A stretch of 64,000 nucleotides of DNA from Balanoglossus misakiensis (GCA_040954595.2 CM082592.2:3488735-3552734), one strand, 5' to 3'. Counted from the stretch's first letter, positions 1 through 34,957 are shown. Made by a program: numbers and translations. Notes: generated by a model not told the origin, from the letters alone.

Positions 1-454
1 ATAGAACCTGTCTGGATCACCTTGTTTGTCTCCACAGAAGTTATCGTAAGTTTTCTTGGAGATTGTCTTGGATAACTCCAGCACATCCTTGTAAATGAGA
101 TTCATCAACCAACGCGTTTTATCTTCCGGGAACTCCGTCGCAAGCCGGTCCGCGTATTCCGCGGTGAACTTCTCCCGGAATTCTATCCATGGAACGTCTG
201 TTTTGTTTCCGAATGTTCGCTCCCAGAAGTCCCGGGTTGCCAGCACATTGGTCAGATGGCGGCGAGATTTCTGTCTCTGATAATTCATTTTGTATTTGCG
301 TGTCTCTTCCGCTTCTGAGAGATCGGGTGTCTGATGATTTGAATCAACATCTTGTATCTCCGATTTCAGAGCCGTAATGAGCCCCGGAATATTGTTTTCT
401 CGGTCGCTTTGGGTTTCCACGACAACCCAGTTCAACTTGGCCAGTGTAAGTCGC
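1..454 (-). CDS. TIR-A exon 5 (runs off window): end of TIR, linker, Cbl-like EF-hand module
   Basis: Acceptor ttgcag at 456-455. 151 open codons RLTLAKLNWVVVETQSD...RDFWERTFGNKTDVPWIEFREKF...ISKKTYDNFCGDKQGDPDRFY; homologous to TIR-B exons 4-7. Confidence 0.9.
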
Positions 455-33200: not shown

Positions 33201-34957
33201 CTAAAACAGTAAGTGACAGATCAAAAATTTCAAAATAAGTTAAAACTACTTTAGATGCAGTATATATTTAAAAAATGTTAAAATTCCTTCAGAATATTCA
33301 CACTTGAAATCTGGGGTCACCATTCAAATCATTTAATTCACTGAAGGTGTCTAAAACAGTAAGTGACAGATCAAAAATTTCAAAATTCAAAATTGTTCTT
33401 CATTTCAGATTTTTGTTGTATTGATGGGGAAAGGAAACCGTTCTGGGAAAGAGTGCACGAAGAAGCTGTTGTGACATACACTATGAAGGAAGTCTTTAGT
33501 GTGCATTCATCCATCAGATTGGATGCCATTCAAAACTTAGGTGAGTCACCCACAATGTACGTGCATCCAAACTGGAGATGTATAATCACATTCTTTGTAC
33601 ATTGTATTGCAGGCTTTTTTGAGGACTCCAAAACAGAACTTTATGGTCTGTTAAAGGGACATTAGCTGTAACTTTTAGTGTGCAGTACACACAGTCGACA
33701 CGTGCAGCTCATGACAATAATAGCATTATGTGATGGATTTTATCCAGGAAATCTGAAGTTAAAACTGGATTTTGAAGTCAGGTTGCATTAATTGGTTTTA
33801 TTAACACACAATGCAGTCTTGCTGATGTGAATAAAGACATGCGTATTGTTTTTAAGATGTTAGTTCTCATTTTTAAATCCATTCATAAACTTGGTCCAAT
33901 CTATCTTTCTAGCATGACTAATCTATATGTTCCATGTCGCAATTTAAGGTCAGCTGATCAGTTCAAACTCTGCCCTGTTCGATCACGCACCAAGAGTTAT
34001 GGTGATCGTGCTTTTACTGTTGCTGCTCCAATTCTTTGGAATAATCTTCCACTCACCATTCGCCAGGCACCAGACTTATCTGTTTTTAAATCTAATGTTA
34101 AAACTTTACTTTTTAAATCTGTTTTTTAGCCATTTGTTGTATTGTACTTTTGCTTTAAGCGTCATTGATCACATTTTTTTGTGGATACTGACGCTATACA
34201 AATAAATTATTATTATTATTATTATTATGTTTGTTTCCATGATTTTCATATCAGGAAAGTTCAACAATGCTGGCGTGATCGATGCCTTGATGGATCTGAT
34301 TGGCGATAAAGATGAAAACGTCAGGACTATTGCCGCCATCTCATTGGCTAAGACCGGCTGTACAGAGCCCCGGGTTGCTAAGAAACTGATGAAGCTGCTG
34401 AATGACCAGGACCGATTGGTGCGGGAGAGCGGATGTCTGTCACTGGGCCATCTCAAAGTGAAAGAAGCCGTTCCAAAACTAGTGCAGCTGTGGTAAGTTA
34501 TGCTTGGCAGTGATCACAGTTTCATGGGATAACCTCAAATCTGTGGAGTGTCTGTGTTTTTTCAGAGTGAGAAAAGGTGATAAGTTTTCATAGAAATTTT
34601 CAGATAAAGGATAAAGTGAACAAAAGTTCCAAAACAAGCTAACGTTTGAAATTCAAAATGGCTACCGAACTTAGTATGACTGGTTCTATTTGAAACTTTG
34701 AATTATTATTTTCCTTGACAGTTCTTACATTTTCATATTCAAAATCACCTTGTGGCATACATCACTGGCTATCAACAACGGATGGATTTATTTGAAACAT
34801 TTAATGTTTGATTGACAGGCGGAATGATACCATATCGCATGTCCGTGAAGCGGCAGAGGTTGCCTTGAAGCAGATAGGTGGTGAAGAGGCGGAGAAAGCC
34901 ATGCATATCACAAAAGTGCTTTCAGAAGAGATCAGGTTGTTGTCACGGCGCCAGTAG
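30106..34957 (+). CDS. Gene TIR-B (complete, 9 coding exons, 446 aa): myristoylation motif + TIR + Cbl-like EF-hand module + HEAT repeats
   Basis: Exons 30106-30259, 30794-30897, 31432-31577, 31917-32059, 32228-32369, 32654-32796, 33409-33540, 34255-34492, 34819-34957; all GT-AG with consistent phases, 1341 nt including TAG. Confidence 0.93.
30794..30897 (+). CDS. TIR-B exon 2 (TIR betaB/BB loop)
   Basis: tttcag|...|gtaaga; ASLESAGVTVWVDEIGLGAGVEFLSKIGQAIVDSK. Confidence 0.93.
31432..31577 (+). CDS. TIR-B exon 3 (TIR betaC-alphaC, catalytic Glu)
   Basis: caacag|...|gtaagt; LFLSLLSEKSVKSKYCKDELALAYVSNKPIFPCAMLSRDELSNEMDFGM. Confidence 0.93.
31917..32059 (+). CDS. TIR-B exon 4 (TIR betaE-alphaE)
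   Basis: catcag|...|gtacag; KLTLAPMKWIFFTNDKKYNDNFEKLLSVIKSKLEELNDENSDGPSNQ. Confidence 0.9.
32228..32369 (+). CDS. TIR-B exon 5 (linker, start of EF module)
   Basis: ttttag|...|gtaaga; AISAHVSPTSHARRTLRRQASHNDIDTDKSTDFWQKYFKGKNKVLWT. Confidence 0.88.
32397..32489. mobile_element. 85-bp TTAA-flanked MITE with CCCTTTCACC TIRs (piggyBac-like)
   Basis: TTAA|CCCTTTCACC...GGTGAAAGGG|TTAA; further copies near 32902-32987, 35602-35688, 39529-39617 and 43047-43139. Confidence 0.8.
32654..32796 (+). CDS. TIR-B exon 6 (EF-hand-like loop NEDENEFLEVED)
   Basis: ttccag|...|gtaagt; FKEKFMEEYGPQLDKVYSNADKEWLISVLYREMNEDENEFLEVEDYD. Confidence 0.92.
33087..33387. repeat. Tandem duplication, 2 x 150 bp, intronic
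   Basis: AAGTTAAAACTACTTTAGATGCAG... starts at 33087 and again at 33237; the copies are nearly identical. Confidence 0.9.
33409..33540 (+). CDS. TIR-B exon 7
   Basis: tttcag|...|gtgagt; NFCCIDGERKPFWERVHEEAVVTYTMKEVFSVHSSIRLDAIQNL. Confidence 0.92.
33835..34228 (+). mobile_element. 5'-truncated L2/CR1-group LINE (ORF2 C-terminus, 3'UTR, (ATT)n tail)
   Basis: RIVFKMLVLIFKSIH...P.YL...RNLRS...YGDRAFTVAAPILWNNLP..IR...FKS..KT.LF is the characteristic L2/CR1 ORF2 tail; ends GCTATACAAATAAATTATTATT(n). Confidence 0.88.
34255..34492 (+). CDS. TIR-B exon 8 (HEAT repeats)
   Basis: tatcag|...|gtaagt; GKFNNAGVIDALMDLIGDKDENVRTIAAISLAKTG...LMKLLNDQDRLVRESGCLSLGHL matches the HEAT/PBS-lyase pattern L..D.D..VR..A...L. 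Confidence 0.93.
34819..34957 (+). CDS. TIR-B last exon (final HEAT repeat, stop)
   Basis: tgacag|; RNDTISHVREAAEVALKQIGGEEAEKAMHITKVLSEEIRLLSRRQ*. Confidence 0.92.

Follow-up and report, generated by a model that had tools for sequence, protein, structure and literature searches.

The 64,000-nucleotide stretch of the Balanoglossus misakiensis genome analysed here (GCA_040954595.2 CM082592.2:3488735-3552734; hereafter the window) contains two paralogous TIR-domain genes, A and B, which are transcribed away from each other. Whether such a pair encodes two enzymes, an enzyme with its regulator, or two parts of a single enzyme is the question raised by this locus. From sequence comparison, it seems slightly better than an even bet (about 0.55) that A and B make up an obligate two-part NAD+-cleaving TIR enzyme. 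Their family, ecTIR-DC 11, is known already; the reciprocal asymmetry of the A and B TIR domains is new here.

The gene pair in the window

Gene B (30106-34957, plus strand) was spliced manually into nine coding exons, which encode 446 amino acids with the frame open to the stop and GT-AG at every intron. Exon 1 (30106-30259) carries the MGxxxS start and TIR betaA with Tyr39/Ser40/His41, exon 2 (30794-30897) betaB with Asp64, an intact BB loop and alphaB, and exon 3 (31432-31577) alphaC with the predicted catalytic Glu105, followed by betaD. The alphaD-betaE stretch, which is variable across the B lineage, and alphaE are encoded by exon 4 (31917-32059). The basic linker and the beginning of a Cbl-like module follow in exon 5 (32228-32369), and exon 6 (32654-32796) continues the module with an acidic EF-type loop that looks canonical in enteropneusts only. 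The helical module ends in exon 7 (33409-33540), which also holds HEAT helix 1; exon 8 (34255-34492) encodes HEAT repeats (Pfam HEAT_2, E 2.4e-16), and exon 9 (34819-34957) the final HEAT repeat, a conserved terminal helix and the stop. The top matches of gene B are from hemichordates, with 80% identity to Ptychodera flava and 66% to Saccoglossus. A 150-bp tandem duplication lies in its intron 6 (33087-33386).

Gene A starts at 27943 on the minus strand and runs beyond the start of the window, where its frame is still open; five exons give 320 amino acids within the window. Coding exon 1 (27886-27943) encodes the MGxxxS start with an additional Cys3 and is 95% identical to P. flava residues 1-19. 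Exon 2 (19712-19912) encodes the N-terminal linker and TIR betaA-alphaA, exon 3 (16588-16688) betaB, a degenerate BB loop and alphaB, and exon 4 (961-1106) betaC-alphaC including Glu139, betaD and the conserved aromatic Phe158. Exon 5 (1-454), which is cut by the window start, contributes the alphaD-betaE motif K-L-N-W, alphaE, the linker and the Cbl-like helical module. The HEAT exons lie beyond the window, and the P. flava A orthologue runs on into HEAT repeats. All gene A introns are GT-AG, and lengths of 8.0, 3.0, 15.5 and 0.5 kb are needed. The best match of this model is hemichordate, an annotated P. flava protein with 74% identity over residues 1-320.

Aligned over 251 columns, A and B share 33% identity (E 8e-47), and all three of their comparable introns fall at the identical alignment column and phase. 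The P. flava identity and these intron positions make the gene A model credible. Splicing, A/B identity and common introns bear out the divergent paralogs, with ATGs at 27943 (minus) and 30106 (plus), which the earlier note had read from the DNA. The MGxxxS start of both proteins and the order of TIR, Cbl-like helical module and HEAT repeats also held, the HEAT part of A through its orthologue.

The note had further placed one CpG-rich region between the two ATGs. A CpG-rich stretch at 27501-29000 (CpG o/e 0.94-1.19 versus 0.48 in the whole window), which is a candidate shared bidirectional promoter, does include the start of A, but it stops about 1.1 kb short of the B ATG. This distance suggests that gene B probably has a non-coding exon upstream of its ATG. 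A common 6-base promoter motif was rejected, with 40 matches against 41 expected. By eye, no conserved block was seen between the spacer of the window and that of contig L010, a second locus described below. A tblastn search of the window, with every family protein as query, gave no third copy.

Long ATG/CAT microsatellites in intron 1 of gene A (26162-26503 and 23138-23206) yield poly-Asp/His/Met pseudo-ORFs. Tail-to-tail with gene B, an exon of a ribosomal protein S6 kinase beta gene (RPS6KB1-like, E 4e-26) lies at 46831-47010 on the minus strand, and a CpG-rich segment at 50001-51000 may be its promoter. At 60059-63774, a 237-bp unit forms tandem arrays (5.9 and 2.9 copies) within a larger local duplication.

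Family, age and linkage

By domain content and tree position, A and B are members of the invertebrate family ecTIR-DC 11, which is catalogued and apparently unstudied. In the available part of PMC6321704 (Fig. S1, classification of Gerdol et al. 2017), Trichoplax TrispH2_006850 and TrispH2_006851 are listed as ecTIR-DC 11 with TIR and Armadillo domains. Consistently, the closest orthologues of the window proteins have Pfam TIR_2 and HEAT_2 above cut-off, and TrispH2_006850 falls in the A clade (99/87) and TrispH2_006851 in the B clade (97/82). The earlier note had not recognised a characterised animal family, and this remark needs dividing: the family has a catalogue entry, and no functional study of it was found. 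The accessible text of PMC5549309 reports ecTIR-DC 11 as gill-enriched in a mussel.

The A and B clades were recovered with full-length sequences (FastTree) and with the C-terminal half alone (IQ-TREE, 46 chosen rows; 99/87 and 97/82). Window A clusters with P. flava A in the full-length FastTree tree, and was omitted from the C-terminal tree because most of that region is missing. Since each clade holds one Trichoplax gene, the A/B duplication is placed before the split of Placozoa and Bilateria. Sponge sequences were unstable, grouping with B or with A in full-length trees and outside both in the C-terminal tree.

Protein searches and a HMMER pass (50% representatives, best 150 listed) gave members, among the matches listed, from sponges, Trichoplax, acoels, annelids, nemerteans, brachiopods, bryozoans, molluscs, echinoderms, hemichordates, amphioxus and tunicates. 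None of the matches listed was a named cnidarian, ecdysozoan or vertebrate member; both named searches scored about 8,000 candidates only. In the Atlas, TIR/HEAT clusters were bacterial only. A Branchiostoma lanceolatum B protein (P0041, P0042) is labelled FAM65A at source, an apparent mis-annotation through its HEAT repeats. Large proteins with 3-7 tandem TIR domains (P0187, P0288 and related) mostly have their highest similarity to a protein annotated as Symploca. Among the HMMER matches listed, no other TIR domains are closer to the animal family, and many of their repeats look catalytically intact.

Linkage was compared in 31 assemblies where both A and B had named records, in which identifiers are a proxy for position only. 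The A and B identifiers were consecutive or near-consecutive on one contig in 14 of the 31 (Trichoplax H2, Ptychodera, Glandiceps, Amphiura, Asterias amurensis, Patiria, two Branchiostoma, Owenia, Dimorphilus, Ridgeia, Lineus, Lingula and Watersipora). Ten had distant identifiers on the same contig (8 molluscs, Antedon and Asterias rubens), and seven had the genes on separate scaffolds (6 molluscs and Anneissia). Neighbouring identifiers were found in none of the 14 mollusc assemblies and were lacking in 3 of the 17 others; molluscs retain the A/B sequence pattern without evident adjacency.

Orientation could be viewed directly at one locus besides the window. Both genes were looked for at 20 of the first 21 of 42 metagenome loci, and only contig L010, nearest to the bryozoans Watersipora and Bugula, had both. 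Its A gene is on the minus strand (ATG 2182) and its B gene on the plus strand (ATG 2958), head-to-head and 775 bp apart. On L002, L003, L018 and L021, no opposite-strand paralog was found in the 2-7 kb that precede the first detected exon. Conserved linkage, which the earlier note had proposed to check, is thus borne out by the 14 assemblies, and the divergent arrangement recurs on this other animal contig. The B-type genes on the bryozoan-like contigs L001-L003 are apparently intron-less and are possible retrocopies, in contrast to the intron-rich B genes on L010 and L011.

Reciprocal conservation of the TIR halves

Conservation of the two TIR domains was compared in 28 species-matched A/B pairs. 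In B, each of Y39, S40, D64, L68, G71, F74, S99, C102 and E105 was kept in 28 of 28 species. A was variable or gapped at these catalytic-half positions: S40 was present in 2/28 and E105 in 19/28, with Gln, Leu, Ala or His where the Glu was lost, and D64 and G71 were outside the five commonest states. At the other half of the domain, A had an aromatic residue at 124 in 28/28, K141 in 27/28, and N143, W144 and F146 in 28/28 each; B was variable at 124, K141, N143 and F146, W144 being the exception. Window A itself retains Glu139 but has none of Asp64, Ser40 and the BB-loop Gly/Phe, and it carries Val where Phe146 is otherwise invariant. Over the B lineage as a whole, E105 was kept in 81/83, D64 in 79/81 and G71 in 80/81.

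The same pattern was found in the whole set. The catalytic-half score was at most 3/7 in 49/49 A and 7/7 in 76/79 B, and the DE-half score was 4/4 in 47/49 A and at most 2/4 in 75/79 B. Mean pairwise identity in 29 pairs was 0.26 for A versus 0.76 for B over betaB-BB loop-alphaB, and 0.66 versus 0.29 over the DE loop-betaE. It was 0.29 and 0.47 in alphaA, 0.23 and 0.25 in alphaE, and 0.53 and 0.62 in the HEAT region. When 351 six-column windows were ranked, the BB loop and betaA were most B-biased (-0.74 and -0.66) and alphaD-betaE was most A-biased (+0.46). C-terminal windows had a mean bias of -0.03 (sd 0.13, maximum +0.22). The alphaD-betaE window lies beyond this range, which argues that A is not merely the faster-evolving paralog.

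The signature positions were picked from the same alignments, so the tunicate and outgroup scores are the sole independent checks. Outgroup TIRs were taken from bacterial-type multi-TIR proteins among the HMMER matches listed (32 of 34 Symploca-like at E < 1e-20). Among the 141 aligned domains, 56 were full-length with D64 and E105; [NQ]W was present in 52/56 of these and K141 in 33/56, which suggests that the ancestor likely had both halves. Styela and Ciona scored 7/7 for the catalytic half and 4/4 for the DE half. They fall in the B clade of the C-terminal tree, which was built without TIR columns, and no tunicate A was among the matches listed in the named and HMMER searches. Four near-base sequences (P0160, P0205, P0185 and P0163) scored 6-7/7 and 3-4/4.

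Some members depart from this pattern. Acoel B paralogs scored 7/7 and 0/4 with no A match among the matches listed, which is a misfit to the A:B model. The named sponge members, some bivalve B paralogs and one further group are degenerate in both halves; these double losses indicate that TIR motifs are also lost without a reciprocal pattern. Seven doubly degenerate members (P0141, P0151, P0182, P0188, P0238, P0248 and P0256), some of them bivalve, look like a second kind of pseudo-TIR, and four of them are placed in the B clade.

A pair of TIR enzymes had been proposed in the earlier note. The NADase motifs persist in the B lineage alone; in the A lineage the BB loop is gone and the catalytic Glu is often missing, so we dropped the idea of two active enzymes.

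Structure models and the NAD+ site

The AlphaFold2 models of the P. flava A and B orthologues each had pLDDT 83 and pTM 0.74. The B TIR model matched RUN1 (Z 16.8, rmsd 2.3, 143 aligned) and SARM1 (Z 16.0, rmsd 2.6, 128 aligned). Glu105 of B aligned with the Glu of Cat1 and AbTIR, and the solved TIR sequences closest to B are the NADases Cat1 (E 1.4e-9) and SARM1 (E 4e-6). The conserved residues of A map to the betaD-alphaD loop and the alphaD-betaE stretch of the P. flava A model, and their assignment to the adenosine-binding face relies on position in the secondary structure rather than on residue-level superposition.

In plant TIRs and SARM1, according to the available text of bioRxiv 10.1101/2021.10.02.462850 and PMC11874154, the BE interface completes the NAD+ site: one subunit places its BB loop on the DE surface of another, and DE binds the adenosine end. 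B keeps the BB loop/Glu half and A the DE half; because a BE site needs both, this argues for an A:B enzyme.

The middle module and the membrane anchor

The middle module had been read as an EF-hand/Cbl_N2-like domain between TIR_2 and HEAT_2. The two flanking domains were confirmed, but the Pfam Cbl_N2 match stayed below cut-off (E 0.002), and comparison with c-Cbl gave E 0.07 across 23 residues. Cbl was absent among the fold matches listed for the whole models, where HEAT and TIR dominated the lists. The canonical-looking EF-type calcium loop (12 residues, acidic at 1, 3, 5 and 12) was present in 5 of 84 B and 0 of 53 A sequences, namely window B and four other enteropneust sequences. EF-hand regulation as a general feature could not be upheld; we dropped general calcium control, and calcium is an unlikely general trigger of A/B.

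An MGxxx[STC] start was found in 42 of 84 B and in 8 of 53 A sequences, the latter from hemichordates, amphioxus and Trichoplax. Some first exons may be absent from the gene models behind these counts. Acylation of both partners, as the window pair had suggested, does not extend to the family, and dual acylation was dropped as a family trait. The difference in frequency makes B the likelier anchor of the pair.

One enzyme or two proteins

In the proposed mechanism, the BB loop and Glu105 of B would dock on the alphaD-betaE (DE) face of A to form one NAD+-cleaving site, probably at the membrane, with the N-myristoylation motif of B anchoring the pair. The protein before duplication would have had both halves and self-associated; after duplication, the donor half would have been kept by B and the acceptor half by A. 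With one half on each protein, chain extension would be impossible, and we propose a closed heterodimer rather than a filament. Mutual dependence would favour a shared promoter, which could explain the linkage. Conservation in both proteins is highest in the HEAT repeats and the terminal helix, which would act as a scaffold or gate for the TIRs, comparable to ARM in SARM1. As the outcome, an ADP-ribose signal (cADPR-type) is more probable than bulk NAD+ depletion.

The likeliest competitor, though improbable at perhaps one chance in five, is that B is a complete enzyme which self-assembles once freed, and A is an inhibitory or sensing pseudo-enzyme that caps the B BB loop. A does resemble plant sensor TIRs in being without the BB-loop Asp and often the Glu (available text of PMC13732033), a capping role would also conserve the DE face of A, and acoels have B-type genes with no A among the matches listed. 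A self-assembling B, however, should need the [NQ]W-x-F/K141 face, which is lost in B but kept in 52/56 outgroup TIRs and in tunicate B, and alphaA and alphaE, which form the AE interface in plants, show little conservation in either A or B. Somewhat less probable still is that the two proteins are independent, B being an enzyme with another partner and A an adaptor that uses its conserved face to bind something else, and that the linkage reflects only a shared promoter from an inverted duplication. Bidirectional promoters can by themselves preserve gene neighbours; identifiers are non-neighbouring in all 14 molluscs and 3 of 17 other assemblies, and most A sequences are without the membrane motif. 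Against this, each conserved surface corresponds to one half of the same known interface, and both halves occur together in tunicates, where only one gene was found. The least probable of the readings is a pair of non-enzymatic TIR adaptors, with MAL/MyD88-like hetero-assembly and a structural Glu. BB-loop-to-DE/EE contacts build signalling TIR assemblies too, the available text of PMC6321704 proposes ecTIR-DC proteins as adaptors or regulators, and in that of bioRxiv 10.64898/2026.04.20.719644 only 12 of 61 Glu-bearing animal TIRs assayed singly were active, 49 giving no product. But B fixes the full pocket (Y39, S40, D64, C102 and E105) in 28/28 species, and its closest solved TIRs are NADases.

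The two-part enzyme remains our preferred reading. Its widest form, which we offer tentatively and at a little under even odds, is a pre-bilaterian obligate heteromeric TIR NADase with one site split over two co-transcribed paralogs. It would be non-polymerising, membrane-anchored and head-to-head for more than 600 million years, would produce a cADPR-type messenger across most phyla of marine invertebrates, and would have reverted to one gene in tunicates. A truly heteromeric site, if it exists, would be a new control mode for TIR NADases, with an active site divided through gene duplication, and would give one reason why the 49 Glu-bearing animal TIRs look dead singly. One active TIR in the same preprint (bioRxiv 10.64898/2026.04.20.719644) has an ARM domain, its family membership being unclear from the available text; if it is a B protein, the obligate A:B model weakens.

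Comparison with known systems

As far as the available texts go, the printed accounts of ecTIR-DC 11 give no function, A/B split, linkage or reciprocal loss of TIR halves, and those of PMC7075850, PMC9334734 and PMC6836662 hold nothing specific on the A/B family. Our literature search found no function, pairing or split TIR for ecTIR-DC 11, and the original Gerdol et al. 2017 may note both paralogs. A back-to-back split-TIR pair from placozoans to lancelets has apparently not been described in animals.

The middle module shares with c-Cbl Cbl_N2 a short FW...F...V.W..F motif and a helix-loop-helix layout, but differs in its sub-threshold match and in the rarity of calcium ligands (5/84 B, 0/53 A). 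With SARM1/TIR-1 the pair shares an animal TIR NADase fold (Z 16.0) and a helical-repeat domain. SARM1 is ARM-SAM-SAM-TIR, homo-oligomeric and filament-forming, whereas A and B have an N-terminal TIR, no SAM match and two genes.

To our knowledge, TIR NADases to date are mostly homomeric. According to the available text of the 2026 paper PMC13732033, no heteromeric TIR NADase was known before its own work on RRS1/RPS4. The plant pairs RRS1/RPS4 and CHS3/CSA1 resemble A/B in being head-to-head, with one TIR that has the Glu and BB loop and one that does not, and inhibition by the sensor TIR has been proposed for both (available text of PMC13732033 and PMC11298796). NB-ARC and LRR domains of the paired plant TIR-NLRs were not found in the full-length A and B orthologues. 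Contact within the plant pairs is through the AE interface, and models with NAD+ bound favoured an RPS4-RPS4 BE site (PMC13732033, available text). In A/B, alphaA and alphaE are unconserved and the catalytic partner B is without the DE face, which suggests, unlike in the plant pairs, a heteromeric site.
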